Source of the DNA: Octopus vulgaris
Taxonomy: Eukaryota
Direction of reading: 5' to 3'
DNA: 64,000 nucleotides
Assembly: GCA_951406725.2 (NCBI GenBank)
Contig: OX597828.1
Location: forward strand, 36,580,001-36,644,000
Part shown: positions 21,501 through 62,420 of the stretch, in pieces
Position numbering within the stretch: position 1 is the stretch's first letter
How the letters are laid out: each line of letters begins with the position of its first letter
The notes under the pieces: generated by a model
Told to the model about the DNA's origin: nothing
The model's input: the letters and a program-made list of their open reading frames with translations, nothing else
The model's database searches: none
Program-made: the position numbers and the translations under genes

Positions 21501-21516
21501 ATATGTATGAATATCA

Positions 21517-21581
<65 letters not shown>

Positions 21582-21603
21582 TATGAAAAGGAACACACGA
21601 GTT

Positions 21604-27800: not shown

Positions 27801-28462
27801 ACTCCTTACTCTAGGTTGGTTTCTTCTAGTGTTTCTAATTGATTAGTAGTTCCTTTTATTAGATAGAGAATGGTTTACTTCTAGGCGTTGGGTCAGTTTT
27901 CTGTGTTTGTGTTCTTTTGGATTTTGATTGTTTGATCTAGGTGGATGTGTATTTATTTTTGTAGATGCATTTGTTCTGGATTTTTTTAGGAAGGGGTTAT
28001 CTGAAGTGTAGTCTCTTTGAAATTGAGCTTCATAATTAAGGAAGAAGTTAACATTGTTTTCCCATCGTTGCAGGGAATTTATTTCTTCCGTCTCACAGCT
28101 GTCTTTCCATAGTTTTATAACGTTTTCCAAAAGTTGTCCATCAGTATGTTTAGTGAGATCGATGTGCATTTCCTCATCGATCTTTTTGTATTTTTGTTTG
28201 TTATTCGATGCTCTGAGTTTGAATAACTCAATCTCTACTTTCATTTTTTTTTTCTAATGCTAATTTCTCCCTAAGTTTCTTTTGCTATTCGGGTTTTTCT
28301 GGGATTGGTTTAATCTGCAGTTTGCGTGGTAGGATTAAATGTGTTGAGTTAATCCATTTTTCATAAATTTCTGCTTTATTGCTATTTTTTATCATGTTCC
28401 AAAATGAGAATTTCCCAGTGTTGAGATTTTGGGACCAAATATGGCTAATCCGACTTTTAATC
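24830..28462 (-). mobile_element. Penelope-like element (RT + GIY-YIG), decayed, Neptune-like Cys linker
   Basis: Frameshifted segments INLS...LAKGLKFTPTP, FYGLPKIHK, LYTNIP, GIAMGT, DDCFIIW, IPFNLAKRICTIVSD, CGRPNCGTCP, FTCASENLIYVITCSSCGHNYIGQT; (TA)n at both ends. Confidence 0.92.
24940..24974 (-). ncRNA. Degenerate minimal type I hammerhead motif in the Penelope 3' terminal repeat
   Basis: atatc-ATGAATA-gc gata gc-GAAA-ccgg-TC-gatat; two core substitutions versus CUGANGA. Confidence 0.5.
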
Positions 28463-28800: not shown

Positions 28801-29109
28801 TATATATATATATATATATTTGATTTTTATCAAGGAGGTTGCAATAGAGTTTTTTGGACAAGTATTTTTGACATCTCCCTACCGCATCAGGGTAGAGGGA
28901 TTTTAGCGTGTGATGCAGGAATGGTGTGATGTGTAATATTTAAATGTGTTCTGGTGCTGTTGTGTATGAGTGGTTGCTTGTTTTTATGTCTTCCTCTGTT
29001 AAGTTTGTTTTCGTGTTGATGTATTCCATCAACTCTGTATTTTTCGTGTTGAAGGCATTGAGCATCGCTGGTGCATCTGTTATTGTGGTGTTGGTGTTGT
29101 TTGTGCTAG

Positions 29110-29340
29110 TGTCAAAACCTCATGGAAGTGCATTTAAACCAACACCTGGGAAATGCAAGCACAGGACCGCTTTGACTGAGGAAGCTGCAATAACAGAAGT
29201 GCCACCCCCGAACAACAGAATAGGATAGCAGGAGCAGAAAGAAACCATGAGCTGCGCATGTCCAGAGCCAACTTCTTACCTTCATTCTCAGCAGACCACC
29301 AGTGTCCGACCTGTGGCAAAACCTCCCGAGCTCACAGCTG
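29110..29340 (+). mobile_element. RTE/BovB-like LINE C-terminal remnant
   Basis: HGSAFKPTPGKCKHRT...CPTCGKT remnants. Confidence 0.4.
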
Positions 29341-30821
29341 GATGAACCTTAACCAATCTTCTTCTCTCAATTGACCCGTCTTCTTCCTTGGTCATCGTCG
29401 ATTCACTCTCTCGGCTGTACCCAAGATGAGACGTTCAACTTGCATTATGTTCTATTTATTCAAAAAATCCTGTGGGTCAAATTTTATTCTCAACTCAACT
29501 GAAGAAAACGGTTTTTTACATGATGTAAAATGTTCTTCATCAATAAAGAACACATCTGAAACAGCTGCAGTGACCTTCAACACAATTGTGTTGTTTTTTT
29601 TCACCACTTGGAACCAACCTTGCGTTAGATCTTGAGCCTAAAGTCGACTGTGGAATGCATGTACACTTGTCTAGCTTAGCGTACATATTGTGTATTCGGT
29701 CGGTACTTGTGAGTGTGTGCATACCTGGGGAGACATATCTGCATTCACCTTAGTAAGTACGTGTATGTCCGTGCACATTGTTACGTGTTGTCCGTACACA
29801 GATGCGCTACCCCCGACTCTACCTTGGCACCTATGCTATTTAAATACCTTAATTCTATCGAATTAGTGTCTGAATGCGTGCGCATAAGTATTTGTGTCTG
29901 TGTGTTCGTGTGTGCGACAGAAGGTGTATGCATATAAAACAGAACACAGAGCATAAGATCAGCATATTGAGTTAAGATGGAATTAGTTCACCAGATCGTA
30001 AGTGAGGTACAGATTAGTAACAGTTCTGTAACAGGATGTTGGGGTCACAAGGCAGAATGCCATTTAAACACATGTCGTGTAGCGGTTGTGGTTTCAATGC
30101 CGTGCCGAGTCTCTTGATACAGGAACTTCTTTCAGGTAGACTGGAGCTGTTTCCCCCGGTGAAATATTTACAACAGCGTGGGGTTTAGGCCTGAGCGAGT
30201 GCTGTGTACGTATTGCTGAAGTCGACGGAGATGGAGACGACGTAGTTGAAGGACGACGTTGTTGACGGCCGTGGCAGAGGGTGACGACGTCGAGATGAAG
30301 GCGACAGAGATAGAGAGCGTCCTGTCTGTCGCTGGTGTAAGTTAGCGTCGTCATGGCTGGTGCAGGAGCATGGTTGGCTGGCTGGTCGTCTGTCGCTAGA
30401 ACTGGAACATGGCTGAGTAGCTCTGTGGTCAGTGATTAGACCTTTGAAGGTCTAGAGGCAAAGACGATGTTTCTTTATTATCCATAAAGGACTATACATA
30501 GATGGGGACGGTACAATCGGGGAACTTAAAATAACAAAAGAGGATGAATAAAGACGAAGAAATTAAAAAAAGAATGAATTATGATAAGATATTATAATGA
30601 GGCGCAATTCCCACTCGAGTGGTTACATTTCGTCAGTCTTTTCCCATAATTGGTTTTCTCAAAGATTACAACTGAATTTTACAAAATTACATATCAATTT
30701 CACAAAATTACAACTGAAGTTCACAAAATTTACAAAAAAAAAAAAAAATAAATTTCACAGAAATTAAAAAAAAAAAAAAAATTTTCGCCAACATAGAGCT
30801 TTTCGGCACTTTTTCATAATT

Positions 30822-32917
30822 TCAGAGATATTCTATTTTTCTTTTCAGCTCCTCATAATCCATTACGGGAGGTGGATGATCCATCAACCGACACCTCTTA
30901 TCTCCTTGTATTTTCTTTCTGGCGACCTCGATGAAATTGGCGTAACTGTCCGCAGGGACTAAAACACCAATCTCGTCTTCGTTATACTTGGTTCCCATCC
31001 TTACTCTTGTTACTCCCTTCATTCTCGATCCTTTTTTCTCTTTTTCATAGGATCTTTTGTATATTACAAATGCTCCATAAAATTTAAACGTATCATTACC
31101 TTTGTTTTCCGCTGAGTCTTCCCTCGTCTTCGATCTTTTTCTACTTTTGGGACTGGTAGCTCCTTTGCTCTCTTCCTTTGGTTTTTATATTTCTCTCTTC
31201 TTGTTGTCCTTCTTGTTTTTTTTCTCTGAACTTTGTCTTGTCGCTATTGTTTCTTTTGCTCTTTTTGTTCCTTTTCTGTTGTCTCTTTACTTTGTGTAAA
31301 TTCATATAATAGACACTCAGTCCTTATATGTCCTCTTGTTCCGCACAGATAACAATTGGGTCTTCTTCCCTCGACAATAATGTTTATCGTCGGTTCATTT
31401 TCAACTTTGATCTGGAAGAGGATTCTCTCTACGTCTTCTGTTGTGGCTGTAAGCCACATTTCGACTCTGAATCCCTGCAAGTTTAACGTAATTGTTTCAG
31501 TAACTGGACCTAGTTCTGGTTCGTCTTTTGTAAACCCTAGAATCGCTTCCACCAGCTCTTCTGTTTTTATTTCCGGTGGTATACTCGGAATCTTAACCTT
31601 GATACTTCTTCTTCCTCCATAAGTGGGTAACATTGTAAACCTTTCTGTTCTTAAGATAGGAGTGGATAGCGAGGCCACCTCTTCACTTGTGGCAAACCTT
31701 ACCTCCACCGTACCGAGCTTCTTCCCTCTGTTGACGTATGTTGCTCTTATCATTATGTCTCCGAGACACTTTTCTATTTCTTCTTCTGATATTCATACTA
31801 TTTTCTTTGTGTTCATATCTTGAGTTTTATATACAGGGTGTCCATAAAGTCTCTTTACAATTTTAAAATTTTATTAAAAAGGCAGTTGACAAGATATCTT
31901 AACCAAATTTGTTTTATTGTAATAATTGTTTATTAAAGTTTTTTTTTAACTGTTATTTAATAGACCTCAATATGGGCACCATTAGTTGCATGAAGCACAT
32001 CAAGATAGTACTCGATTTCTTGCCATGTTCACTGTAGGATAGCCTCATCAACGGTGGCAATGGCATTACGAATCCTTTGCTTCAAGTCAGCGATAACCCG
32101 TATCTTTGTTTGATACACGATATCTTTTACATAACCCCTTAAAAAGAAGTCCAAGGAAGTGATATCTGGCGAATGCGGTGGCCATGGAATTGGCCTAGCC
32201 CTTCCAATCCATTGGTTGGAAATGTTTGATTTAGGAACTGACGAACATGCCGTCCCCAATGTGGTGGTGCACCATCTTGCTGGAAAATGATGGTTGGTTG
32301 TAAATCAATCAGTTGTGGTGCCACATATTCAGTCAGAAGGTCGAGGTAAACATCTGCAGTAATTGTTGCCTCGTTGAAGAAAAGTAGACCAATTATTCGA
32401 TTGCACATGATTCCACACCACACATACACAAATTGAAGGATGAAATGGTGGATCTCTTCCATACTTAGTTCTGTAGTTTCGTTGAGTCTGAACATCCGAT
32501 TTTGTCTGAATAAACCAGGACACACATTGTGCCTTTTCATGAGGAGTAGCCATTTTATAGGGGTTCAGTGAATCAGTTTCCTTCCATCAACAGAGTATCT
32601 GAAACACAAAAATTTAATATCAATAAAAACTTTAATAAACAATTATTAAAATAAAACAAATCTGGTTAAAATATCTCATCAACTGCCTTTGTAATAATTT
32701 TTTTAAATTGTAAAGAAACTTTATGGACACCCTGTATAATCGTTTTAAGGTTCTTATCCTCTGTTGTTTCTGCTGGAGGTATCAGCTTGATGCATTCTCC
32801 TTTCCTTCTCATATACTGCTCACATCTCTGTATTTCTTCTTTATCAACTATAACATTGTTTTTAAAACCCATTGATACGATACTTCTTGTTGCAGCAACC
32901 CTCGCATAGGTATCCAT
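30822..32917 (-). pseudogene. Tx1-type ORF1 (CCHC zinc knuckle), disrupted
   Basis: MDTYARV...KTII|YKTQ...TYVNRGKKLGTVEVRF...CYLCGTRGHIRTEC; removing the transposon and one TA restores the frame; a few stops remain. Confidence 0.85.
31834..32734 (-). mobile_element. Tc1/mariner DD41D-type transposon, internally deleted
   Basis: TIR cagggtgtccataaagt..., TA TSD; HTH N-terminus MATPHEKAQCVSWF; FQQDGAPPH...WPPHSPDITSLDFFL with 41 residues between the Asps after correcting a 1-nt frameshift. Confidence 0.88.
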
Positions 32918-33354
32918 AGGAGGGACGACATCTTTTCTTTCCCCTAAAATGAGAAAAAAGAACGGCAAGCAGCAGCAAGCGCCTCGCGCGATTCGTTCTC
33001 GTTACGACTTTTTTTACAACTTTTTCCCACTTTTTCCCATTTTTTCACACAAAAGACGTAACGTCTTGACATTTCGAGTTCACGTCTAGAGCCGAAGACG
33101 AATAATAGTCTGTCGATTCCGCCTTTTTATAGAGTTAAGGTGGCTCAAATGAAGCATACTTTATCCGAAGGCCGTGATTGGTTGGCTTACAGTCTGGCGC
33201 GAAATAAGTCGAAAGACAAACTACGCCAAATGCCAACCAATCAGAACAGTGGACACAACAGTGTCAAACTAGCCAAAGATGGTTGTCATCTAGCAGGAGA
33301 TCATTTCTAGTATGTCTCTCAAACAGTGAGGATATCAGTTACGCTACAGTCAGA

Positions 33355-33556
33355 ACACCGAGCGAAATGCTTAGTGGTATTTTGACTGTCTTTATGTTCT
33401 GAGTTCAAATTCCATCGAATTCGCCTTTCATCATTTTGGGGTCGATTAAATAAGTACCAGTTACACACTGGAGTTGATGTAATCGATTTAATCCGTTTTT
33501 CTGTCCTTGATTGTCCCCTCTATGTTTAGCTCCCTGTGAGCAATAAAGAAATAAAT
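33355..33556 (+). mobile_element. SINE family B with Tx1-type tail
   Basis: Same central domain; tail attgtcccctctatgtttagctccctgtgagcaataaag. Confidence 0.8.
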
Positions 33557-33958
33557 ATCTTTACATACATATGCATGTAGGTATATATATACATATACAT
33601 ATGTATATATATATATATATATGGTGACCCCCTTCGGTCAGACACAGACCATGGGTTTGCACTCAGAGAGCCACCCTCTGAGGCACAAGTCTGGGCAAGG
33701 TTGGTGTATGGAAGACCAGCAGTCGCCCATGCATACCAGCCTCCCCTCTCCACGCCACCAGTGTTATCCAAGGGAAAGGCAAAGGGGCCGATACAGCTTG
33801 GCACCTGTGACGTCGCAACTCATTTCTACAGCTGAGTGAACTGGATCAACGTGAAATAAAGTGTCTTGCTCAAGAATACAACACGCAGCCCGGTCCGGGA
33901 TTCGAGCTCACAACCTTACGATTGTAAGCTCGACGCTCTAACCACTGAGCCACGCGCC

Positions 33959-34024
<66 letters not shown>

Positions 34025-34028
34025 TATT

Positions 34029-34062
<34 letters not shown>

Positions 34063-34065
<3 letters not shown>

Positions 34066-34365
34066 AGGTGCAATGGCCCAGTGGTTAGGGCAGCGGACTC
34101 GCGGTTGTAGATCGCGGTTTCGATTCTCAGACCGGGCGTTGTGAGTATTTATTGACCGAAAACACCTAAAGCTCCACGAGGCTCCGGCAGGGGATGGTGG
34201 CGATCCCTGCTGTACTCTTTCGCCACAACTTTCTCTCGCTCTTTCTTCTGTTGCCCTGCTCGCTTAGCCAACGGGATGGCGTCATTTGAAGGCTAAAACA
34301 ATGCGAAGCGCATTGTGACCAGCGATGTGTAGCAACATCTGATAGCCTGGTCGGTCACGGTGACG
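34063..34365 (+). mobile_element. tRNA-derived SINE family C
   Basis: Head and 5' body nearly identical to the 17027 copy, with a different 3' half. Confidence 0.82.
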
Positions 34366-34429
34366 GTGATACACACACACACACACACACACGTACACAC
34401 ACACACACACACGTACACACACACATAAG

Positions 34430-35200
<771 letters not shown>

Positions 35201-37019
35201 TGGAGTGGGAAGAGGTATGAAAAGCTGCATTAAGCTACAAATAATTCCTATCATATGTAACTATTAGCAACTTATCAAAATATATATTGTGATTACTCTT
35301 TTGACTGCGGCCATGCTGGAGCACCACGTTTAGTCGAGGAAATTACCCCAGGACTTATTCTTTGTAAGCCTAGTACTTATTCTATCGGTCTCTTTTTGCC
35401 GACCCACCAAGTTACGGGGGACGTACACACACACCCCAGCATTTGTTGTCAAGCGATGCTGGGGGGGGGCGGGGACAAACACAGGCACACAAACACACAC
35501 ATATATATACATACATACACATATATAAAACAGGCTTCTTTCAGTTTCCGTCTACCAAATCCTCTCACAAGGCTTTGGTCGACCCGAGGCTATAGTAGAA
35601 AACTGTACCCATATATGCGTGTATATATACATATAGATGTAAGCATGTACATATATGTATGTATATATCACCGTGATCACTGTGACCGACCAGGTTATCA
35701 GATGTTACTACACATCGCCGGTCACAATGCCCTTCGCATTGTTTTAGCCTTTAAATGACGCCACCCCGCTGGCTAAGCGAGCAGGCCATCAGAGGAAAGA
35801 GTGCACCCACGCCGTGTGCACGCACACACACGGGCACATACTCAGTGCCAGCACACGCAGGGCACAGGTACACCCAACATACATGGACACGCATGCGAAC
35901 AGACACATGCACACTGGCGCACGCGCAGCACATTAATGGACATTAACCACACACATACGCGCACACACGGGCGGGCACACATATACACACACCATCCTAC
36001 CCCCAAAAATTCTTTAAACAACACACATCTATTTACACCACCCTGGAACCAATCAAAAACAGCCCCCCACACACAGAGACACATGTATACATGTATATGC
36101 ACACACACAGAGACGCACACACTCACACCAATCTCACCTCCATACAGACACACATATACACACGCAGCACCATGTCAAATGCCATCCACACACATACATG
36201 CATACGCACGCACACACACACAACACCATGAGAACCACACACGCGGTTGACAAACAGACACCTTCCTACCAAATATTACAGACACACAGACACATCTATT
36301 CACACCACATATGTATGTATGCACACACACATACACACAAAGACACACATACTCACCTCATTCTGACCCCAAAATCATTGATGCTTGAAGGAGAGCCAAA
36401 AAAAGAAAAAAAGAAAAAAAAGGGTACATTCTTTTCAATTCCACATTTCTCCTAAAACGGACAGGTTAGTTCTAACTTCACCACTATAATAATGTAAATC
36501 TTTTTGAACTCATAATATTCTGTATGTGTATACTGAACTTTTTTTAATAATTCCTCCTGGAAATTACCCTGAGATGTATAATATATTTGTTTTAATCTTT
36601 TCTGCCCATTATTTCAATGTTAAACTTTTTTATATTCTCAACATACTGTTGTCACCAAAGACTGTATATTTATATGGATTATAGTACTCTGTGTCAACCA
36701 ATATTCTGTGCATGTTTGAATATACAGATACAGTACCAATATCAATTCCTTCTGGAAACTATCTTAAGTATGTCCTTGAGAACGATTATTTATGTAATCT
36801 TTTGTGCCCAATATTTTAAGGAACTTGTTGAACTTTTTTATGTCCTTAACACGTCCCTGTTACCAAAGACTGTATATCTATATGTAATGTAGCAATTTGC
36901 AACAACCAATAATTAACGCAACCAAACTTCCACATGTTACTTTTGACAATCTTTTTCCAAAGAGTGAAACCGGTAAAGTAAATAAACATCTTTTAAATTG
37001 CATTTTCAAACCTTCTTTC

Positions 37020-37078
<59 letters not shown>

Positions 37079-37081
<3 letters not shown>

Positions 37082-37758
37082 CTAATGTAGGATAACATTT
37101 TTTTCGGGAAAATTTTTATCAATGGCCAGCATATCAAAAAATACCTTTAAAGGTTCAATTTATAAATAATTTACAAGATAAAGGCAGAAGAAAAATTCTA
37201 ATGCCAAATATGCCGGTTTGTTTCGAGACGCATAAATTATAATGGTTATCGACAATTTTTTGTTTCGGCATATTTGGCATTAGAATTTTTCTTCTGCCCT
37301 TATCTTGTAAATTATTTATAAATTTAACCTTTAAAGGTATTTTTTGATATGCTGGCCATTGATAAAATTTTTATCCTACATTAGTTATAAATTTAAATAG
37401 TGTTCACTTCCGGATTCTATCACTCTGTGAAAGTTTCTAGTTCGAATCACACGTGTCTTGAGATGTGCCGAAGATTTTTCTATTTTGGATATATTTGGGG
37501 TACTTAAGTCTGCTCAGGACTTAGAGCTTGCGTTTTCCATGGGTATGAGTAAGTATTTCACTTATATCTCGCGTATTTGCCGCTGAAGAGGAGAAAATTT
37601 TCTTATGAATTAACCCCGAAATTGGACCAATACAGTATTAACGAATTTTTAAGAGATTTCTATCGGTTTGTTTCGAGACGCATAAATTATAATGGTTATC
37701 GACAATTTTTTGTTTCGGCATATTTGGCATTAGAATTTTTCTTCTGCCCTTATCTTGT

Positions 37759-37765
<7 letters not shown>
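37079..37765. repeat. Inverted + direct repeat module (Penelope-type pLTR junction) between (TA)n tracts
   Basis: 37079-37215 is inverted at 37266-37389; 37214-37315 is directly repeated at 37663-37764. Confidence 0.75.
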
Positions 37766-37819
<54 letters not shown>

Positions 37820-38570
37820 AGTGTATCTTGCATGCATGAAGTGGATTCGATCCACCGTGGCCAAATTTTAATTAACACATCAACAGAACTTTTCCCACAG
37901 TGGAACAATGATTTTTCTCTGACAGCAGTTTTACAATTTCCAGATTGCCCTTAGCTAGGCTGAAATAATGTCTTTACCACTTACCCTATCTAACATCTTC
38001 TACTTCACCAAAAGCTAGGGGTAGAGATAACAAGACCATCAACTAAATCTTTTGTTCTCAATGATATATCTATACTTCTGGATACTTGTAAAAGCAAGAA
38101 CACTCCAAGCAAAAATCAGTAGGTGACGACTCAACGAGTGCAGTGACATAGTGACGATTCAGTCAGTTAGTCACCTTAGTGAAAAAGAAGTCTGGCTGAC
38201 CAGCTAGAACATTGGTCAGAGGCAGTAAAATGAAGTTTTCTGTCAGCCACTGTGAGACAACGTCCCACACCCTACAGCTCTCACTAGCTCTAATTCTGTT
38301 CTCTTACATCATTCTATCAATATCTGTGGATTACTACCAATAATTTGTGTACGCCAAACCATGGAAAACATTCAACCATATCTAACTTTATTTTGCATGC
38401 TCTCGGATGTTATAACCTGCTCGTCGAGGTATGGATTTTTTCAAAGTAACAGTGAATAAACAGTTTCTTAAAACTTCATGCATTGTTCATCTTTCACATC
38501 CTACAGTATGCAATTGTAACAACAAATCTCTCCCGCTACAAATTGGTGACCCTCGACTTACTTTATCGTG

Positions 38571-38644
<74 letters not shown>

Positions 38645-38785
38645 TTATATACTTTCTCACTTCCCGAGCGTTAAACTAATACATCTGTTTGTTGTTTAAA
38701 CACCCGTCTTCGTCTTTTGTTTTTTATACATCTATATACATGTATACATGTATATAAATGTATACATGTATACTTATACATGTAA

Positions 38786-38818
<33 letters not shown>

Positions 38819-40025
38819 TGTATGTATGTATGTATGTATGTATGTATGTATGTATGTATGTATGTATTTATGTATGTATGCATGCATGTATGTATGTATG
38901 TATATATATATATATATATACATACATATATATATACATACATACATACATACATACATACATACATACATACATACATACATTCATACATACATACATA
39001 CATACGTACAAACAGAGATACCTTGTTGTTGATGTTGAAATTCTAATGAATGGGCCTCGGAGCCTAGATTAGAAACCGGTTCTTTCTCTAATGGCAAGAA
39101 ATCTTCAAATAAAACCGAACAATGACATACATATATATGTGAGGGTGTGTTTGTGTGTCTTTGTATGTTTGTGCTAGTATTGACATGGGTGCTTTCACGA
39201 CCACATTCAGCGGAACACATGCACGTACACACATAAGCATATAGATGCACAGACGTACACGAACACAAATACACAAACGCGGACATGTATTTGTAAACTC
39301 TCACGTACACAGATTTACACACATACAAACACATACACATGACGTCAGAACTGTCAAAAAATATGTAAGAAAAACAAAACAAAAAAAGACAACAAAAAAA
39401 TGAAACATAAAAAAAACCCATAAACAAAACAAAACAAAGTAGAGGAAGGTTTATAGAAATTCAGCGCGAATTATCCACTTCTGCGGGAACCAATCAAATA
39501 GTGTCTCCCGTTATTTAATATTTCAACATCTAAAATTCACTATTGACATTCTATACCTTCGTTCCTTCAGTTCTCTTTATTTTTTGCAGCAATTAATTCA
39601 AAGAGGTAATATATAATCATAAACACTCTCCATTCTTGCATAGTTTTTTTTGTTTTGTTTCTGTTTGTATTTTTTTCATTTATTGTCATTCTCTTTTATA
39701 TTTTCTTAAATCGCAATAATTAACTTTCAAACAAAGTCTTTATTTTGTCGCAAGACTTTCGGTGGGAAATCCTATGTTTTAACAGACGTTGTGTATATTT
39801 GGTGACAATAAACACATGAACTGGTTCTATTCCAGTGTCTTTTATTGTCATTAACCAATCCAGTTAACTAATTAACCAATTAAAAGGATCGATTGCTTGA
39901 TTAATCGTACCATGTGGTTGGGAAGCAAACCATACAACGACTCCTTTCATTTTATCATTGTTTCTACGTCATAACTTCCACATAACATCAGTTTGTGCGT
40001 TTTTATATTTGTCATTGTGTATATA

Positions 40026-40648
40026 CTCAGGGGTGCATGTGTGCAAAAGTAGGTGAACAGTATCATATCAATGTTACAATACTTAATTCATTAAAGGCGG
40101 CGAGCTGGCAGAATCGTTAGCACGCTGGACGGAATGCCTAGAGGTAATTTGTCTGCCGCTACGTTTTGAGTTCAAAATCCGCCGAGGTCGACTTTGCCTT
40201 TCATCCTTTCCGGGTCGATTAAATAAGTACCAGTTACGCACTGGGGTCGATGTTATCGACTTAATCCGTTTGTCTGTCCTTGTTTGTCCTCTGTGTTTAA
40301 CCCCTTGTGTGTAGTAAAGACACAGGTATTTCATCTGTCTTTAATTTCTGAGTTCAAATTCCGCCGAGGTCGACTTTGTCTTTCGGGGTCGGTAAATGAA
40401 GTACCAGTTGCGTACTGTGGTTTGTCTAATTGACTGGTTCCTCCCCCAAAATTTCGGGCCTTGTACCTAGAGTAGAAAAGAATACTTGATTCAATAAATA
40501 AGTTAGTCTAATTTTTGATATTCTCAGTGTCATTAATCATAACTATAATAATATGTTAATCGTAACTTTTAATATTTTTGATTTAAAAAAATCAATATTG
40601 TACGTGTTTTTTTCATAACTTTACACCTATATTTGTACCACCCCTGTG
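40026..40648. mobile_element. Tc1-like MITE interrupted by a SINE
   Basis: TA-flanked ctcaggggtg...gcaaaagtaggtg / cacctatatttgtaccacccctgtg. Confidence 0.5.
40096..40482 (+). mobile_element. SINE family B, partially tandem-duplicated
   Basis: Full head-domain-tail followed by a second partial unit from about 40325; other copies near 12010, 49840, 50010 and 55665. Confidence 0.82.
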
Positions 40649-41179
40649 TATTTTTTTAATCATTAATTTTTATCATAACTACTTATAACTCTTTTGAAAC
40701 GATCATTCCTGTTTTATCATTACTCTTACCATTCTTTCTTTATTACAGCCTTAAAAAAATCCTATCTTAATTTCATAATTATCCTTTTAATTTTATAAGT
40801 CATTATTACAATTGTTTCTTTTACCTTATCTCATTTTCCTAATTCTTCATCATAACTTCGGTTTGTCATTGCCACTTCATCATAACACACAAACACACAC
40901 TTCATCATAACACACACACACACGCTCGCACACACTTTTCCCGTTTAGTGGAGAATGATGTGAAGAAGGTTTGTCTGCTATTTCTAGTGTGTCAAGTGAC
41001 TGCACAGGGGATCCCAGGCTGGCTCATAGCAAAGTGGTTTAGCTGTAGATGTTGTTTAACCCTACTCACGGACCTATAAGCACGGGCATTCCAATATGAC
41101 CCACCTCGCATATTCCCCACCCACAATATACCCACTGCCTTATTATTAGTCCAAGTAAATTTTCTTTTCTTTTCTTTCT

Positions 41180-41388
41180 TTTACTTCTTTCAGTCATTTG
41201 ACTGCGGCCATGCTGGAGCACCACCTTTAGTAGAGCAAATCGACCCCAGGACATATTCTTTGTAAGCCTAGCACATATTCTATCGGGGCCATTTTGCCGA
41301 ACCGCTAAGTTTCGGGGACGTAAGCACACCAACATCGGTTGTCAAGCGATGTTGGGGGTACAAACAGACACACAAACATATACACACT

Positions 41389-41451
<63 letters not shown>

Positions 41452-41610
41452 GATGGGCTTTTTCAGTTTCCGTCTACCGAATTCACTCACAAGGCTTTGG
41501 CCGGCCCGAGGCTATAGTAGAAAACATTTGCCCAAAATGCCACGCAGTGGGACTGAACCTAGAACCATGTGGTTGGTAATCAAGCTACTTACCACACAGT
41601 CACTCCTGTG
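41180..41610 (-). mobile_element. tRNA-derived SINE family A, near full length
   Basis: Reverse complement of the 13458-type copy with internal (CA)n. Confidence 0.88.
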
Positions 41611-42605
41611 TTAGGTTTTTCCACAATATTTTCATGGTTGTCAGAAACTTGAGAAAATTAATACTTTAAAACGAATTGTATGTTAAAGTAGCAATTAACG
41701 AGCGGGTTACACATCCCAGCGAACATATTTGACGCCACCACCACCAGCGATTCCTTATTATTTCTAACATAGGAGGCAATGCTAGGAATTTTAAGGATAG
41801 GAGTAATTCGGTTACTAGGTTCTCAGTGAAAAATTTTCGTTTTAATAGCAAGAAGACAAAAATAAGGTCTCGCATTCATATGATTTTTATTTCTTCGTAG
41901 ACAAGCTTTAAAACAAGTTAGAAACCATTTTGGTCCTATTAAAAAATGCAGTTTATTGATGGTCGTGTCAGACGATACAGTAACAAGGCCGCTGACATTT
42001 GTTATGTAAGAAAAACACATAACTAAAATGGTTCTTTATTATTTCAGGCTCTAGTTTTTCTCCGTTCTCCTTCCAGCCTGTAACACAAAACTGTGTACTG
42101 ATTATAAGTCACACACATGCACGTTCACCTACACGATCACTCAGACAGGCGCGCGCACCCGCACGCCTGTGCACATTCGCGCCCTAGTGTACACAATCAT
42201 ACTCATACGCATAGACAGTTATATTCACACATACACATTCACTCACATAATTTATTCCCATTCATGTGAAACCACTAATATAAGTAAAAAAAATAAAAAA
42301 TTGTCAACTATTATTATAGTCATTATATATATTGTTACCGGTATAAATTAATATTACTAAGAAGCGTTTCCGGTTCGTGGCACATTGGGTGGGAAAAATG
42401 CCGGTACGTCACATCAGAGAGTTTGAAAGAACTGATCGAAGATACTTACTGATTGGTCGAAATACAGTTAGCACTTAGTTGGCGTGACATTGAAGTCACA
42501 TACCGATTAGTCAAAATACAGTTCGTAAGAGTGAGCCTGGTGAAAGGCCCATTGGAGTGGGTATTTAAGGGATAAATTTAATTATTTCACCAGTTATTAA
42601 TTGTG

Positions 42606-42857
42606 CACCACCACCACCACCACCACCACCACCACCACCACCACCACCACCACCACCACCACCACCACCACCACCACCACCACCACTACCACCACCACCA
42701 CCACTACCACCACCACCACCACTACCACCACCACCACCACCACCACCACCACCACCACCACCCACCACCACCACCACCACCACCACCACCACCACCACCA
42801 CCACCACCACCACCACCACCACCACCACCACCACCACCAGCACCACCGCCACCACCA
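42606..42857. repeat. (CCA)n trinucleotide microsatellite, about 250 bp
   Basis: Direct reading; three CTA interruptions and one phase slip near 42761. Confidence 0.97.
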
Positions 42858-43320
42858 TATGCGTGTATGTATGTGTTTGCGTGTGTGCTTGTGAATATGT
42901 GTGCACATTTATAAACATACTAGCATTAAACACCCGTCGTTGCCGGGTCATAGTGCCAGTGCATGTATATATGTGTATATATATATGTGTACATATTACA
43001 TGTACATTTATATATATATACATCTACACATAAAATGCAAAACACAAAGTTATATCTTGATATCGCTCGTGATAACAATACTCAAAATATATTACAGACT
43101 GGAATTGTTTTATTATTACCCACAAGGGGCGAACATAGAGGGGACAATACAATCTGATGTGGGGTCAGATATACGAATGGGTTTACAAAAATTACAAAAA
43201 TAGAAAAAATCGAATGGGGAACAGACCGGAAGACATTACGGATGGAGTGGGAGCGGGTTTAGCTCGGACCCCACGAGCCCCGCCTCCCCACTGATACTTT
43301 GGTTTCGTCTAGTTTTACAT

Positions 43321-46300
43321 TTATGTGGTATCATCCACTCGCAACTTTCGTGCTACATCTTTCCATCATTCTTTATACACTCTCTTAGTCAGGCATTTTC
43401 TCTCCAGCCCTATCTTCCTTTTCAGGTGAAAGATGAAGTAATTCATCAAACCAGGGCCGGATATGAACTTGCCTGACCGTAAACCTTTCATTCTCGTCTT
43501 CCATATCACCTCTTTCGCAATTGCTACTACAACGAGAAAACAATTCTTACCTTCTTTCGCGAGGAAATCTGGTGGGTCAATTTTTGTAATAGACTCAGTC
43601 GACAGCTGTACTCTTCGTGTGCTTGACAACAGCTGTTCGGCATAAACCCACACCTCAGACACGACCGAACAATGAACAATAGCGTGCGGGACGGTTTCCC
43701 TATCCCGCTCGCATCTTGGACATATCGGACTGTCTTGGCCACCGTGCCTTGCGAGTTTATCCCGAACAGGTAGAGCTCCTCTGTAGCATTGCCATGCCAG
43801 AGACTTCTGGAAGTTGTCCAGTGTCTTCGGCTCGAACGTACGTCGGAACAGACTGGCCAGCTGATTATCGTCGAGACCTAGGGTCTCCCCCAAGGTATCT
43901 TCACATTCCGCCTCTACCAACCCTCTATAGAAGAATGTGGTGGAACCCCCACCGCAGGCGTTGCCCGAGCGACGGAATAGCAGGAGAGCCTTGCGACACT
44001 CTGTGTACCATGTGCCCAGTTTCGATTTACGATTCAGCCAGGTTTCCCATCCACCGAAACAAGTGAACTTGGGAAACATCAGTTTTGCTAGCGGAGACCA
44101 CACCCGTTCACCATCCAGGTAGAGCCACAGATGTCTTAACCTCAGCGCATGTCTGCGCATCATCAGCCAAGGCATCCCTAGCCCACCCTTTAACGGTTGT
44201 TGACAGCAAGTAGAGCGTTTCACAAGTGGTTTCCCGCCCTTCCACAAGAAGTAGAAGAGCTGTCTTTCCAACTTGATCAACCACGAATCAGGGCAAGGAA
44301 CGACGGAAAGGCGGTAGGTGTTAACCGATGCGATAAACACATTGGCTACCTCCGTCCTCCCTTTCAGAGATAGCCACCGCCAAGACCAGGTCTTGGTTAC
44401 TGCAGCCACCCTGCTCGATACCTCGCCCCAATTCTTCTCTATTTGGAGGTCTGGACCGAACCAAACCCCTAGCAACTTAATCGGACCCTCCGTCCAACGT
44501 CCCACGACGCTGTCAGGAGGCATCGACTTGCCTCTCCAGGTGCCGAGTTGCAAGCCGACTGACTTTTCGTGATTAACCTTTGCTCCTGTCACCGTCTCGT
44601 AAACCTCTATGGCCTTGCCTACTTTACGTAGGTGATCCATTTCGGTTACGATGATGGTGATGTCATCCGCGTACGCTGACACCGATTTTCCACAACCTGG
44701 CTGTCTCGGGATGCCGCTCAGTTTTCGCAGTAATGGCTCAAGAGCCATCACGTACAAAAGCGGGGAGAGCGGACACCCTTGGCGAACCGAGCGCTTGATG
44801 TTGAACGGCTTCGACAAGAAGCCGTTCACCCGAACTACCGAGTCGATGTTGTCGTAAATTTGGATAATCTACCTGAGGAAGCCAAGGCCCAGCCCGAACT
44901 GTGCCAGGGCAGATACCAGGTAGCGATGGTCGACCCTATCGAATGCTTTAGATTGGTCTAAATGGACCAGTGCCCCACCCTTGCCAGAATCACTATTAAA
45001 CCCCTCTATAGTGTACCGCATAAGATGGAGATTATCCTGAATGGTTCTGCCGGGAACGGCACATGTCTGTGCCTCCCCGATCAGACCATCCGCGACACGC
45101 GCCAATCTTTTTGATAACACTTTGGCCAAAATCTTCAACTCTGTGTTTAGCAGAGTGATGGGCCTGAAATTATCAATGCACTCCCCCTTGATCGGGTCCT
45201 TTCTGATGAGTGTCACTACTCCCCGGCGCACAGATCTGGGTATGAACCCGTTCTGCTGCCAGTTCGCATAGACCTCCGCCAGTAGGTGCCCGAACAAGTC
45301 TGGCATACTCTTATATAACTCATAGGGTAGACCATCTAAACCCGGCGCCTTGCCCGCGCCGCAGTCCGCCATCGCCTCAACCACCTCCCCAGGCGTGATT
45401 GGCCCTTCACAGCCCTCCGCATCTCGCCCCGATAAGCGCGGCAGCCCGTCGAGGAGGTCCGTAAAGGCTCTCCTCCTATCCAGTCCGCCGCACTCACCGA
45501 AAAGCTGAGCGAAGTGCTCCTGAAAGGCCTCACACATCTCCTCGGGCTCGTTTATCAACTCATCTAGTTGGTTCGTCTTAGATCGAATCGTGGCGTCGTT
45601 ACCATGCTGAGCTTCCACCACTCGGGCCCATCTCACGGCGTTGATTCCTTCACAACCCATTGCGCGGATCCTAGCCCTGACAATGCAGCCCATGTGTTTG
45701 GCCTCGAGGTGCTGGTTTAACGCCAGTCTCTTGGCCGTCACCTGAGCCGCAGAGCCAGTTTTCAAGGCTTTCTCTAATTCCTTAACTAGAGTAGATTCCC
45801 TCCTAGCCTCTCTAGCCACTAATCCTTTGCTATATCTAATAGACTCGAATTTGATGGCTCGCTTGAGGGCATACCACCATTTGTTATTAATGATGGCACC
45901 AGATAGCGCCCTCTGAATTATAGTCCTAATCCGGTCTCTGTACTCCTTATTCGCCAAAAGGGACGTATTAAGTTTCCAGTAACCGGAGCCTCTATTTTTA
46001 ACCTTATCTATGTCAAGCTTACAGGTGACCATTTTATGATCACTGTAGCTGACCATGTAAAACTGTGGACACTTAGCTATTTTTCTGTCTACTTTTCTAA
46101 TTAGTATCCTATCTATGTATGACCTGGAAGATCCGTCGCTGTTTGACCATGTCCACAATGGAGCGTTCGGAAATTCCAGCCTATAAGGATCTGCTAGCTC
46201 AAAGCGGCTTAGCAGTTCCAGGAAGCCAATGTTACCTTTTCTATCTGGACGCAAGCTAACACAATCTACATCCGCTTTGCAAATTGTGTTAAAGTCTCCT

Positions 46301-46716
46301 AGCACAACTAATGAATGCGAAGTACCAAGAAAGTTTTCCAGTTCTCGAAAATAATCACTTTGCCCTTTTTGGTTGGGTGCGTAAATTGCAACCAGTCTGA
46401 TAACTTTACCGTTACTGAACGTCAAATCCATGACGACCAGCCTGCCTTCTGGGTCTGAAAAAATTAACTTTTTCTCAAAAACCCGGTTTCTTTTTAATAG
46501 GACCAACACCCCACCCCCGCCTGTAGGACTGGCCGGAGAGAAAAAACTCTCGTAGCCGTCAAACAGCGGGAGTAGACCTCTTGGCCCCTCTAACCGGGTT
46601 TCTGTAGCAACAATAACATCCAAATTACGCGACCTGATATCATTAAGGAAGCGACCTTGCTTCCAGCTTGATCCCAGGCCGCGCACATTTAAACAACCAA
46701 CATAAATGCAATCCAT
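43321..46716 (-). pseudogene. LINE ORF2: APE endonuclease + reverse transcriptase + CCHC, two nonsense mutations
   Basis: LNVRGL, ETRL, IYAP, GDFN, SDH; QGCPLSPLL, YADD; CPRC..H...C. One frame throughout, broken only by TAG at 44871-44869 (likely TGG) and TGA at 43368-43366 (likely CGA). Confidence 0.93.
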
Positions 46717-47094
46717 GACTTACCTTATATCAGTGGTTCGACTTGTTCGACTTGTTTTTCTTCTTCTTCTTCACTTTTATTTTTTTCCTGGGCTCGTGGG
46801 GGAGTTCGACGCAGGCCCTCGTATAAATATGGAGATATGTCCAATCTCAGAGGGCCCACGTCGTGAAAGAATTCGGATTTTATCCGTCCGTAATCCTTCC
46901 GGCCTATTCTTTAAACAATGCAGTCTTTTGTTTTTTTAATTTTCTCCACCTTGGCCATGGCTGCCAAAACGTTAATTAGCCTGTTGTTGGCAGCCTTAAT
47001 GGCCATAAATGTATTCGTCGCTCCTTTCCTCTTTTTTTGGCTCTCTTTCTGAGGGGTGGTTTCTGTTTTCTGTTTTTTTTTTGGTAATTTATGA

Positions 47095-47985
47095 CTACCC
47101 TTCCTCTTTTTCCTTTTCTTCGCCGCTTGTTGTTTCTGTTGCTTCTTTGGTTTCTGTAGTTTCTGGTGTTTTCTCTTCTGTTTTTTCTTTTTCTGGCGGT
47201 GCTGCTTCCTGCGGTCTAGGTTGGCACTCCGCTCTCACGTGCCCCTTTTTACCGCAGCCGAAGCACCTCGGCTTTCTGTCCTCCACAAACACTAACACTC
47301 TCTCCTCCTCGCTGATCCTCAATATCTCTGGAATTTCTTCCAACGTCTGGACCTCCGCCTGTATCGCCATTGAGATGCATTGGCCTTGCCAATACTCCTC
47401 CTCCTCTACTGTAGCCTGGAGGATAGTGATCTTGTCCTCCAGGCCTAACATCACTGCCGCCACTAGGTATGTGGCGTCCGCTTCTGGCGGAATATTTTTT
47501 ATTAATATTCTTGAGGTCCTTCTGCCTCTGTACAGGGGGAGGAGGACTATATTTTCCGCTTTTAGAGGTTCGGTTGATAGCTTCTTCGCTATCTCCTCAG
47601 TCCTGAACCTCATCTCAACCGTTCCAAATTTTCTGCCACGGTTTATGTATGTGATGTCCTTCCATATTGTCTTTAGACAATTCTCGATTTTTTCCTCTTC
47701 CACTCTTTGAATGGTTTTCATCGTCGTATTATATGTTTTGTAAATAATCCTTCTTTTATCTACTTCCTCTGTCTTTCTGACGTCTGATTCCACTGTTACT
47801 TTATTACCTTCCTTTTTCAAACATGCTGCATATTTTTCTAGGTTGCTTTTTTCCGTGTTGATTTTTTTCTGTTTTTTTCCCGCAACTTCTGCGAACTTCT
47901 TCGCTGGGGCTTCTTCTGTTTTCGGCGTCACCGCCGGTGAACTTTCTTCACCTGATACAGGTGAATAGGAAATAGGAGTGTCCAT
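47095..47985 (-). CDS. LINE ORF1 (CCHC zinc knuckle), C-terminus prematurely stopped
   Basis: 296-aa ORF with CFGCGKKGHVRAEC, upstream of ORF2. Confidence 0.88.
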   Translation of the reverse strand: MDTPISYSPVSGEESSPAVTPKTEEAPAKKFAEVAGKKQKKINTEKSNLEKYAACLKKEGNKVTVESDVRKTEEVDKRRIIYKTYNTTMKTIQRVEEEKIENCLKTIWKDITYINRGRKFGTVEMRFRTEEIAKKLSTEPLKAENIVLLPLYRGRRTSRILIKNIPPEADATYLVAAVMLGLEDKITILQATVEEEEYWQGQCISMAIQAEVQTLEEIPEILRISEEERVLVFVEDRKPRCFGCGKKGHVRAECQPRPQEAAPPEKEKTEEKTPETTETKEATETTSGEEKEKEEG

Positions 47986-49306
47986 CTCTGGATGTGGCTT
48001 TACAAGCCTTTTCGATTGGCTTTAACAAGCCTTCAAAAACTTCTGGCTTCGCATGCCTTTTGTGTGTATTTTAAACTGTTCCACAATAATTGTCTCACAA
48101 CAATTCCCCCGCGGGGGGGGGGGGGATTTTGATACGTAGCCTTCGCGCGAAGGCTAATAACAGTTTTACACAAAATACACAATATATAAAACAAAGTAAC
48201 AATAATTAAATTAACAAACCGGTAATAAACAACAATCGACAAAACAGACTAGCAATCAATTAAATGGAATTGTTAGCTCTCCTTTTTTCTCTACATTGTA
48301 TACTTTATAGACAATAGTCTTTTCTTTAATTTAATTTTTTATTATCCATCTGGACTATTCCATTCCTGCACGCTAATTTTATTTTTAATTTATTCCCATT
48401 CATGTGAAACCACTTATTCAGTTCAAATCATTGATGCAATTTTATACCAATTGCTATTTTAACTTTTGTTATGTTACGATTATATGATACTTTAGTTTGA
48501 ATTTTATTATTACTAACTACATATAATTCAATTGTTATTATTATTTTTATTGTTAAAGTGAAAGCATCTGACATAAAACAGAAAAATATTTTTGTTTCAC
48601 TTTTAACACGTAATACTGAAATAGTGGAGAAGATATGATATTGCTATGGGCTCGCTCTAGGCAAGAAGTTGAACACTTTTTTTTGCCCATGAAACTACAT
48701 GGACCCTAAGTAAGGCATGTATAACATTTGAATGAAATTGGTTATGTAGTTCTCAAGTTTTAGGGAAACAGATAGACAGATACACATTCTCAGTTTTATA
48801 TATATAAAGATATATTTACAGTAAGACTTCAATCATTTATAGACCATTTTCATTTTTGTGTCTTCTTTCAGGCGATGGCATTCAACCCCAAAGAATATCT
48901 TTCCAAAAACTGGATCCACTTGCTGGTCTGAGTTGAAATGTTTTTTTCATTTTCTTTCTCCTTTGACTTTTTCTCCTCTTCCTATCTTTCATTTTATCCT
49001 CTCTCTTTCTTTCTGTTCACAGTTGGCTCGCTGGATGGCTTGTTATATTTCCCGTATTCAAGACAAACCGGGAAGAGCCACTGCAATGTCACTCAGGCAA
49101 ACGGATCTCATATCATAGCCACAAAAAGGAGTGAAGAACACATTGCACTCTATAGTCTGTAGTCAAGAAAATGTAGTTTCAGGTTCAGTCCCATTGTGTA
49201 ACAAAAATGTTACGAATGGCTGTGAATGGAATCAGGACAGTGTATCCCCATGAATCAAATTAAGCGTTAGGTTCGAAATTCCCATACAAGTAAGTTCAAC
49301 ACAAGA

Positions 49307-49348: not shown

Positions 49349-50435
49349 AAAGCAACAACCAAGATGATGACACCTGATCGACTCATATAAAAACTATACT
49401 TATTCGTAAAATAATGTTTTTTCGCCTAATTAAAATTAAACTGTAACTCATTAACAGCCACTGACCCATTTTTGGGGATAGATTTAACATTTAATGTTAA
49501 TGATATTATGAAGAATTTTGCAATTCTGCTGTTATATACTTGATATTTATAATATACTTCAGGTATACCATTAAAATATAATCAGAAATATAATCAGGGT
49601 CTTTAGGAGTTAAGAAAATGTAAAGAATTATAATATTTATAGTTGATGGTTTAACTTTAATGGGTTTAGAAGTAAGAGCGTGTAATCAGCTGACGATTAT
49701 TATGATGGATAAACCTAGCGTTTCGTCGGTTATGACGACGAGAGTTGAAGTCGATTCGATCGGCAGAACAACATGTTCGTGAAATTAACGTGCAACTGGC
49801 TGAGTGCTCCGCAAACACGTGTATCCTTAACATAGTTCGTCTTCACATTCTGAGTTGAAATTCCACCGAGGTCGATTTTGTTTCTCATCCTTTCGGGGTC
49901 GGAAAATAAGTACCAGACGAGTACTGAGGTCGATGTAATCGACTTGTCCGCTCTTGTTAAATTGCTAGCCTTGGGCCTAAATTTGAAATCATCATTTGTG
50001 GACATTGAGGGTGGCAAGCAGGTAGAATCGTTATTGCATCGAGGGAAATGCTAAGCGATATGTCTTTCGGCTATTTACGTTCTGAGTTCGAATATTACTG
50101 AAGCCAACTTTGCCTTTCATCCCTTTTGAGGCCGTTAAAATAAAGCAATCAAGCCGTTAATTAATGGAGTTAATTTCATCGACTCACTCTCTCCCCATGT
50201 GCCAAAATTGTTAGCAATTATATGTCAATGCTGACCATCACAAGTGAAAATTATTGATAAGTTGAAAATAGGTAAGTATAATGAAAATCTCGTTTCTTTT
50301 TAAAAATCCCTAAAAGAAATTGATTTTTGTTTTCAACAGGTATTGGCATTTGTGGTCGTAATTTTTGGTATGGGAATTGCGCAGCTGAGAGAGTCACGGT
50401 AAGCCTTTTATTCAATGGTTTTACTACTTTAACGT

Positions 50436-54599: not shown

Positions 54600-55866
54600 C
54601 GCATGCATACATACAGGTACACAAACATCTACGCATGCACGTGCACAAATAGATGAACATAAACAGATACTGATGTAATTTAAAAACAGGAAATAACAGA
54701 CATGCATAGATCAATGCAAACTGTGTGAAACTGAAACTGAAAATAGGACAACGTAAGCACTTGAGCTTATGTTATGCAGCCATCAATACACGAGGCGTGT
54801 TGTAGTGGTCAGAACATTATACAATGTAATTCGTAGAAAGAATATTCCTGCAAATGCTTTTAAACACTTACATATAAATATACATAAATACATTGGTGTG
54901 GATGAATGTCAGCGTAAATGATGGGATACAACCGAGAAGCGATGTCGCGTTGAGAATTCAGCAAACAACGACCAAGGATTAAATGTCTGGATCTAGAATG
55001 ATCCATATAATTCAGAAATATAAATAATATGTGTTATTTAGATATTATAAATATTAGGATTATTAAAAGATTATAAATTTGCATCGCTGGATTTAAGGAG
55101 ACGTTCATCTTTACATAATCTAGCATCAACAGTCCGGTGTTTCTAGAAATATAGTTATTGTTTGTTGTTTGTTAGTGTGTTAGATCGAGGAAAAGCTTAA
55201 TCGAGTAGGCCCCTGCCGAAAGGTTTCCCAGCTGGAACAAATTTAGCCTTTTCTCCTTTCGATCTGGTATATTTCGGATAATTTATTCAAGATGTACTTC
55301 CGATCTTTTAAAATGCTAGGCTAATGAATGAGAAGCTACTTCCAAAACATGAAACAGATACGGGGATACGTAAAAGGTGTAAGAACCTGTTGGGAATCGT
55401 CAGTGTTGAAAAGCGTAGTGAATATTTTCTTTTAGGAATTCATAGATTTGCAAATTATAATGCTTCAGACTTACGGCTTATACATTTTATTTTTCATAGA
55501 GCTTCTAGAGAACTTCGAAGAGGTGGATTGAAATTAAAGTGTGGCTAAAATTTCGCCAGTAGGTGAGGGATACTTTGCTCTTGCCGTTGAATATCCCTCA
55601 TCATCTCGAAGGAATATATTTAAAGAAATGACATTGTAAAATAATCCTTGACCTGTAATTCGTGGGGAGAGGGCTAGTTAATTACATCGACTCCAGTGTT
55701 TCACTGGTACTTAATTTATCGACCCCGAAGAGATCAAAGTTAGATTCGACCTCAGCAGAATTTGAACTCAGAACACAGCGACGGACTAAGCATTTAGCTA
55801 AGCATTTCGTGCAGCGTGCGAACGATTCTGCTTGCTCTCTAATCTTAAATAAAGAGATGCCATATA

Positions 55867-58670: not shown

Positions 58671-58726
<56 letters not shown>

Positions 58727-58728
<2 letters not shown>

Positions 58729-62359: not shown

Positions 62360-62420
<61 letters not shown>

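Follow-up and report, generated by a model that had tools for sequence, protein, structure and literature searches.

A common 3′ tail with a probable small hairpin in an L1/Tx1-type LINE, an ORF1-only element and a SINE of Octopus vulgaris

A 64-kb stretch of Octopus vulgaris DNA (the window; all coordinates refer to its forward strand) carries a long interspersed element (LINE) of the L1/Tx1 group, an element reduced to the first open reading frame (ORF1-only element) and a short interspersed element (SINE B), all of which end in closely similar 3′ tails that, judging from their sequences, probably form a hairpin of 4 bp with a 5-nt loop. Because the three elements share this hairpin tail, the comparison suggests that an L1/Tx1 enzyme selects its RNA templates by the tail and not by poly(A). 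The reading that we favor, with moderate confidence, is that of a stringent, poly(A)-independent octopus L1/Tx1 lineage whose passengers are a SINE and an ORF1-only element belonging to the same guild.

The three tails lie where the initial annotation had placed them, namely at 43154-43110 in the LINE (minus strand), at 30518-30468 in the ORF1-only element (minus strand) and at 33509-33548 in one SINE B copy (plus strand), with hairpin 13-mers GCCC-CTTGT-GGGT (43130-43118), GTCC-TTTAT-GGAT (30492-30480) and GCTC-CCTGT-GAGC (33529-33541), respectively. Tail similarity was scored by aligning the last 55 nt, with 2000 dinucleotide shuffles as control and both strands of the window scanned. Against the ORF1-only tail and the SINE B tails at 33.5k, 23.4k and 40.3k the LINE tail scores 52, 52, 52 and 40, values reached by none of the 2000 shuffles in each case, and these four are its best non-self matches in the window, the next scoring 28. 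The ORF1-only tail in turn scores 37, 41 and 30 against the SINE B copies, again with 0/2000 shuffles, and the similarity among the three families is restricted to their last ~40-45 nt. Together with the position of the LINE and ORF1-only tails inside their target-site duplications (TSDs), which abut the tails without intervening poly(A), these values uphold the claim that the shared tail belongs to each element. The reported 17-nt identity between SINE and LINE is likewise exact (33510-33526 = 43148-43132), its first base being present in one of the three SINE B copies. An upstream GATTGTA is common to the LINE and the ORF1-only element and missing from two of the three SINE copies, and the AATAA described downstream of the hairpin holds for the quoted copies, two of the three SINE copies carrying AGTAA instead.

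The LINE (43110-48264, minus strand) is a full-length, 5.15-kb broken copy recognized by its domains and a 10-bp TSD, whose 5′ copy, AACAATTCCA, occupies 48265-48274 and whose 3′ copy (43100-43109) immediately follows AATAATAA, in agreement with the proposed lack of poly(A) at this end. The TSD score is equaled by 3 of the 400 random flanks that served as control, and TSDs of about 7-20 bp are typical of the L1/Tx1 group of LINEs. ORF2 (43321-46716, minus) encodes APE endonuclease, reverse transcriptase (RT) and zf-RVT modules, with PF03372, PF00078 and PF13966 all above the Pfam cut-offs, and finds its closest PDB relative in human L1 ORF2p (E = 1.6e-41, versus 6.8e-10 for R2). ORF1, assigned from homologues and a tree, precedes it at 46760-47985 (minus; end coordinate approximate). 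Both frames are broken in this copy, ORF2 by in-frame stops at 44869-44871 and 43366-43368 and ORF1 by a stop at 47095-47097 with frameshifts beyond; the stretch linking the endonuclease and RT modules of ORF2 is unbroken. The Octopus sinensis protein P0001 (450 aa) is 72% identical to the LINE ORF1, and all seven homologues at E ≤ 0.001 come from O. sinensis or O. vulgaris (59-89% identity); a search for ORF2 relatives returned none in genome contigs and none in viral contigs. A CX2CX4HX4C knuckle is visible in the ORF1s of both the LINE and the ORF1-only element, with zf-CCHC E values (0.048 and 0.0054) that fall below the Pfam cut-off. From its ORF2 domains, upstream ORF1 and TSD, the LINE belongs to the L1/Tx1 group, which accords with the Tx1 label of the initial annotation. 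A gag-like CCHC knuckle is present in the ORF1 of Tx1 and is not known from that of mammalian L1, and on this basis the element is a putative Tx1 in the strict sense; an Atlas search named no clade. Separately, the flank past the 3′ TSD (AGTCTGT, 43094-43100) reappears 14 nt into the 5′ end of the LINE (48250-48264, minus), possibly through microhomology or nucleotides added at the 5′ junction.

The ORF1-only, HAL1-like element (30468-33083, minus strand) measures 1,707 bp without an inserted transposon and is delimited by an 18-bp TSD (5′ copy at 33084-33101, with two mismatches to the 3′ copy at 30450-30467) whose score is reached by 0/400 random flanks. Its ORF1 runs from about 32917 to 30810, with stops and a frameshift, and is followed by a 3′ untranslated region (UTR) of about 350 nt. 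The insertion in ORF1 (31830-32738) has 117-bp inverted ends and a TA site and yields no Pfam match; from this anatomy we take it to be a Tc1/mariner-like DNA transposon. It is a later event, as the joint 31831-32735 found in all four runs shows copies without it. The copy-number data come from contigs of four public runs from four studies, mapped on 30380-33580, one of which may be the source of the window; their depths are rough rather than copy numbers, and statements on contigs refer to those listed. In all four runs several divergent contigs cover the body of the element, which is thus multi-copy, with a rough summed depth (X2) of 370-1,220 compared with 41-82 for the single contigs listed. 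A tblastn search with the LINE ORF2 detected no ORF2 remnant in 30468-33083, a result that holds for this copy. In one contig (X6 record 24) the match to the UTR continues as far as 30470 and ends there. Depth in the tail bin (15,228 in X2) was rejected as a sign of truncated copies, since SINE tails could produce depth there, and a "longer" search for the element gave no match.

As to its origin, an internal deletion of the LINE at 43110-48264 is ruled out, as the two ORF1s share 38% identity over 160 aa and fall in separate clades, and the 5′ parts of the two elements have no similarity at the DNA level. In a quick maximum-likelihood tree of 87 rows, made up of both window ORF1s and 85 of 161 collected proteins (those that aligned over at least 95 aa and some short ones included by name), the ORF1-only protein belongs to two starred clades, of 8 and 26 rows, neither of which contains the LINE ORF1, and its C-terminal domain type is unmatched in the LINE family. 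The O. vulgaris protein P0016, a member of the ORF1-only family, is 72% identical over the C-terminal 114 aa and has the same end point, and relatives exist in O. bimaculoides. On its sequence the element is an old, separate ORF1 lineage, and its parent LINE may lie elsewhere. The description of the element as ORF1-only thus stands for this copy, the family itself being multi-copy, and the notion that the LINE of the window drives it was overstated.

These data also bear on the strongest alternative, in which the ORF1-only element is an internally deleted offshoot of another autonomous Tx1 family with its own ORF2 and its tail is related to that of the LINE by descent, giving two parallel systems. 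We regard this as a possible but less probable account, and one compatible with stringent recognition. The ORF1 divergence, the exclusive clades and the differing C-terminal domain all point in its direction, as does the loop of the ORF1-only hairpin (UUUAU), which departs from that of the LINE (CUUGU) at two of five positions; given this loop difference, the LINE itself and a sister Tx1 family are roughly equally likely to drive the ORF1-only element. In addition, two contigs ~85% alike (records 9 and 17) match only to 30909 and continue for 360-490 unseen letters, and no contig among those listed bridges the ORF1 stop and the 3′ UTR, for which reason the ORF1-only structure is shown for one copy only. 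On the other side, depth is similar on ORF1 and 3′ UTR, with 719 and 870 (X2) on either side of a T-rich UTR stretch, this copy retains no trace of ORF2, and the ORF1-only tail scores 52 against the LINE and 26 against the second Tx1-like family of the window (see below). None of the 168 fetched proteins, nearly all of them ORF1 relatives, carries an ORF2, a weak argument as the two ORFs are separate. Other copies of the family likely lack ORF2 as well.

Several further observations concern the ORF1-only lineage and its surroundings. A sister ORF1 family (P0026, P0156-P0161) has seven near-identical members annotated as O. vulgaris genes, which suggests recent activity, and the C-terminal domain type of the ORF1-only family recurs in ORF1s elsewhere in the tree (P0016, P0026, P0053, P0056 and P0024), where it may mark other ORF1-only lineages. 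A TATA-like box precedes the insertion point of the element by ~30-45 bp, and CCAAT-like boxes are also present upstream. The repeat that hosts the element (33084-33350 and about 29780-30467, minus) has high depth on both flanks, starts with TGTA and may end in CA, as in a long terminal repeat; no TSD was found for it.

SINE B is represented in the window by three copies of ~230-bp length type with 81-87% pairwise identity. The quoted copy (33355-33553, plus) is 5′-truncated and retains a B-box-like GAGTTCAAATTCC (33401-33413), followed by a conserved core and the tail. A second copy (23430-23663, minus) is full-length, with the hairpin GCCC-CTTAT-GGTT (three of four pairs, 23456-23444), and the third forms the first half of a dimer (40096-40480, plus), in which the B unit (ACCC-CTTGT-GTGT at 40300) is joined to a 5′-truncated unit with a different, C-type tail (GGGC-CTTGT-ACCT at 40456), the whole mobilized as a single unit and enclosed by one 18-bp TSD (40078-40095 and 40481-40498). 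C-type tails, of the form TCCCC-N9-TGGC/GGGC-CTTGT-GCCA/ACCT, occur on the same SINE core at 12000-12208 (minus; TGGC-CTTGT-GCCA at 12025-12013) and, in degenerate form, at about 49840-49990 (plus; TAGC-CTTGG-GCCT, two of four pairs, 49966-49978). One SINE copy terminates in A11. ARAGORN and Rfam detected no tRNA or other RNA family in the SINE, which we presume to resemble MetaSINEs, a superfamily with a 66-bp Meta domain right behind the tRNA head; the supplements searched held no matching sequence. The SINE core had no match in viral contigs or in genome contigs. TSD lengths of 10, 18 and 18 bp and the missing poly(A) agree with target-primed reverse transcription that operates independently of poly(A). 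Many Tx1 families prefer particular target sequences; no common motif is obvious among the three TSDs, a number too small for one to be expected to emerge.

The run contigs place the quoted SINE B copy in perspective. The other two copies read TTGTTTGTC, TCTGTG and AGTAA, with one broken pair each, and the 33.5k copy is atypical. At 33376 the loose-end consensus of SINE tails, here dimer-internal, gives GTGGGTAGTAAAGAAATA in each of the four runs and the full GCCCCTTGTGGGT in two of them, from 159 and 319 contigs. At least in dimer-internal tails, the majority SINE B hairpin is identical to that of the LINE, which makes the connection between SINE and LINE stronger and the case for gctc/gagc as a trait of the family weaker; no variants in the SINE tail appear among the 40 of 651 variant rows listed. 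In 159-583 contigs per run a B tail is followed by a SINE head at the same junction (33376), where the B tail is therefore internal, which probably reflects a dimeric SINE family or else a preferred insertion site in SINE heads. The C-type 5′ arm with most or all of its loop likewise recurs in loose-end consensi from 204-765 contigs per run, in four of four runs.

Whether the hairpin itself matters can be approached through folding and covariation. The 13-mers GCCC/GGGU, GUCC/GGAU and GCUC/GAGC each form in the minimum free energy (MFE) structure of their own 24-26-nt fragment, four short tail fragments fold weakly, at z of -1.1 to -2.2, and RNAalifold predicts exactly the four pairs from a set of six tails (LINE, ORF1-only, three SINE B and a second Tx1-like tail). 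The inner C-G pair is retained in seven of eight tails. A simple neutral model, applied post hoc, gives double changes that leave the stem intact a p of 0.01-0.03 in the SINE copy and of ~0.04 in the ORF1-only element. A composite pattern, written after the tails had been seen, finds seven sites, all of them retroelement ends, against 0.5 in shuffles; the tail pattern had no match in viral contigs and six in metagenome contigs, all without SINE or LINE context and without a blastn match to the window. Two tails extend the stem downward in their MFE structures (UCU-N-UGUU with AAUA-A-AGA), and the LINE does so for the UGUU/AAUA part; this lower stem is absent from the consensus fold of the tails and is a lead only.

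A number of results weigh against a structured signal. Five LINE, ORF1-only and SINE B tails of ~71 nt fold no better than their shuffles (z of -0.1 to -1.5), and the hairpin is absent from the MFE of the 73-nt ORF1-only tail. In the six-tail set, 20 of 24 cells are paired (38/500) and the covariation score is reached in 37/500 controls, with 70/500 in a further comparison, none of these values being significant; two pairs show a double change. The stem proposed for all three families does fold in the quoted 13-mers, and two of the three SINE B copies break one of its pairs; the compensatory pairs are present in the quoted copies, gctc/gagc being seen once, in one of three SINE copies, and the majority SINE form being that of the LINE. 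The description of the hairpin as covarying accordingly goes too far for these tails, as it relies on one SINE copy and the ORF1-only element. The second Tx1-like family, known from a 3′ fragment with a diverged tail (19334-19790, plus; ORF2 C-terminus 51% identical), has a tail weakly related to that of the LINE (27/2000 shuffles) that retains CCCCAT-TCT-TGTT and AATAAAGA and has a 3-bp upper stem with a 6-nt loop in place of the 4-bp/5-nt hairpin, so that the motif in this exact form is not lineage-wide. These findings, as well as invariant columns that lie mainly in the UCU-UG upstream part and the A-rich end, would suit a model in which homologous tails serve recognition or 3′-end formation through their primary sequence, the hairpin being incidental to a GC-rich 13-mer. 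We judge that model unlikely, given the two independent double changes that keep their pairs, the retention of the inner C-G pair and the behavior of the C-type tails, which have the CTTGT loop of the LINE and flip both middle pairs.

The weight of the C-type tails depends on how they are related to the others. MAFFT places their hairpins in register with the remaining tails, and with eight tails including the C-type, 27 of 32 cells are paired, eight cells show double changes and the covariation score is 0.66 (0.20 ± 0.10 in controls, 0/500); this score counts inherited changes several times, a further point against reading it as independent covariation. With ten tails, two misses included, 29 of 36 cells are paired (0/500). 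By sequence the C-type tails are weak matches (60, 429 and 16 of 2000 shuffles for the LINE tail; not significant by shuffles for the ORF1-only tail), one of the four C-type copies (55.7k, 55660-55705, minus) is without the hairpin, and a model trained without the C-type tails recovered none of three among 27 matches at E ≤ 10, all of which again speak against a common structured element. Covariance model R2 found only its training tails, and a protein search with the ORF spanning the SINE tail, for hairpin variants in gene models, returned no candidate.

The least probable account, in which the LINE and ORF1-only masters each acquired a SINE B end so that the tail would say nothing of recognition, draws on the extreme abundance of SINE B (with a summed depth roughly 10^4-fold higher than the ORF1-only body has, an approximate figure and not a copy number) and on the resemblance of the ORF1-only end AATAAAGAAACA to the SINE end AATAAAGAAATA, and we consider it very improbable, as no SINE body lies upstream of either tail, truncation at the same point would be needed twice, GATTGTA is common to the LINE and ORF1-only element and missing in most SINE copies, the tail of a more distant Tx1 family shows a weak relationship and the tails lie inside TSDs. 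For the same reasons, tails inside TSDs and no SINE body before them, simple SINE insertions at the LINE and ORF1-only ends are rejected at these loci, and the initial annotation's own counter-hypothesis of independent insertions does not fit these copies.

Returning to the stringent Tx1 lineage, the mechanism that we infer comprises ORF2 binding to the tail, a role for the hairpin, a LINE-to-SINE capture and an assignment of LINE drivers to passengers. The LINE-encoded ORF2p would bind a ~45-nt 3′ element made up of a pyrimidine-rich UGUCCCC-UCU(A/G)UGUU, the 4-bp hairpin, with an inner C-G pair and a (C/U)UU(G/A)U loop, and a short, A-rich terminus that lacks poly(A). Binding may, by analogy to zebrafish L2, involve the linker between endonuclease and RT, the stem being read in a general and the loop in a specific manner (PMC4176376). 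ORF2p would then nick the target, prime reverse transcription at the A-rich end and leave TSDs of 10-18 bp. SINE B, with a putative tRNA head, would have gained the LINE tail and be copied in trans, and it most likely took this tail from the LINE. The ORF1-only element would supply its own ORF1p and borrow ORF2p from this LINE family or from a sister Tx1 family, and the latter, if it is the driver, should match the UUUAU loop. In a broader proposal, a whole octopus Tx1 guild would dock at one common RNA element (UCCCC, 9-11 nt, a 4-bp stem with a C-CUUGU-G loop and an A-rich end). This element would serve several LINE families, a long-lived ORF1-only lineage found in more than one Octopus species and both B- and C-tailed SINEs of the same core, whose stems are flipped and whose loop is retained, with a stringent Tx1 enzyme as a main engine of octopus-specific SINE expansion. 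We put this forward tentatively, as an unlikely extension; if true, it would be the first animal L1/Tx1 system shown to recognize a structured tail.

Each ingredient of the octopus system has a precedent, and the system is an extension rather than a new kind. In the parts of Ohshima's survey covered here, 58 SINE/LINE pairs include three with L1 tails, all from plants or algae, with no Tx1 row, and stringent recognition is proposed to be ancestral, with a later relaxation to poly(A) in most plants and in mammals (PMC3472496; PMC3747384). The closest parallels are the monocot LINE1-1_ZM with ZmSINE2/ZmSINE3 and the Chlamydomonas L1-1_CR with SINEX-3_CR, where an L1-clade LINE has a ~45-50-nt 3′ end in common with tRNA SINEs (PMC3472496; PMC3747384), with a hairpin that bears compensatory changes and conserved loop bases and with stringency that is deduced there too. 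The octopus system differs from these pairs in its animal host, a Tx1-type ORF1 with zinc knuckle, a much smaller hairpin, an end without poly(A) or poly(T) and the additional ORF1-only passenger. UnaL2, ZfL2-1 and ZfL2-2 of the L2 clade and their SINEs similarly have a short 3′ stem-loop as proposed ORF2 site, with an exchangeable stem and a specific loop; their stem is longer and their recognition experimentally proven, whereas that of the octopus tail is deduced by comparison (PMC4176376).

Precedents also exist for the ORF1-only passenger and for Tx1-driven SINEs in animals. HAL1, HeT-A and Ag-Sponge have ORF1 only, their own 5′ and 3′ UTRs, a TSD and multiple copies, and derive from poly(A)-type mammalian L1, Jockey and CR1, respectively (PMC5786205; PMC5753468); the octopus element differs in a Tx1-type ORF1 that is 38% identical to that of a LINE sharing its structured tail. 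Borrowing of ORF2p by ORF1-bearing elements has been proposed for HAL1 and HeT-A (PMC5786205). In crocodilians, the Tx1-Mar LINE was deduced to mobilize SINEU, a link based, in the parts of that paper covered, on shared target preference, ages and 5′ heads derived from small nuclear RNA and not on a shared 3′ tail (PMC4494074). In mollusc HCD SINEs (Meta/CORE/V/Deu), a tRNA head and a conserved core are combined with tails of 35-61 bp that derive from LINEs and can be exchanged (PMC4824008; PMC11481361), a range that includes the ~40-45 nt of the octopus tail (PMC11481361); these SINEs differ in their partners, which in the parts of these papers covered are CR1, CR1-Zenon, L2 and Nimb, with no L1/Tx1. 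"Tx1" and "octopus" are absent from the main text of the bivalve paper, as far as it was covered (PMC11481361). Octopus SINEs have been classed mainly as tRNA-Core and tRNA-Deu (PMC8967140), and in O. vulgaris SINEs make up 11.6% of the genome, alongside 13 recently active L1-Tx1 families, the parts of that paper covered containing no SINE-LINE partner analysis (PMC13282606).

No description of an octopus Tx1-SINE tail pair was found in the literature searched, including parts of PMC9115989, PMC4758252 and PMC5804259, a body of text that most subscription journals lie outside; Repbase, Dfam, SINEBase, the Zenodo O. vulgaris library or supplements may hold one. Tail motifs had no match in the paper supplements searched, one MetaSINE file and four Petrosino files excepted. 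What we describe is likely a "stringent" L1/Tx1 system in an animal, the literature found reporting such systems in plants and algae only. Where SINE/LINE tail sharing is concerned, the known exception is the L1 clade, and a poly(A)-less tail with a 13-nt hairpin in an animal would be a missing data point for Ohshima's idea. Its small, easily mutated hairpin offers a substrate to compare with human L1 ORF2p structures, the LINE is a candidate driver for the SINEs that account for 11.6% of the O. vulgaris genome (PMC13282606), and the catalog of ORF1-only elements gains a family of Tx1 type.

Other repeats in the window include Tx1-like relics at 28883-29570 (minus), where a fragment of an ORF1 C-terminus has 67% identity to P0050 and the C-terminal part of ORF2 is matched weakly (E = 0.07), and a degraded RT element at 25280-28253 (minus; RVT_1, E = 0.013), which from its motifs we presume to be Penelope-like. 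ORFs at 56161-56852 represent a second transposase relic, which we take to be mariner-like. Finally, interspersed repeats of ~0.4-1.1 kb occur twice each, at 20584-21680 and 62375-63475 and at 34438-35222 and 58323-59263.

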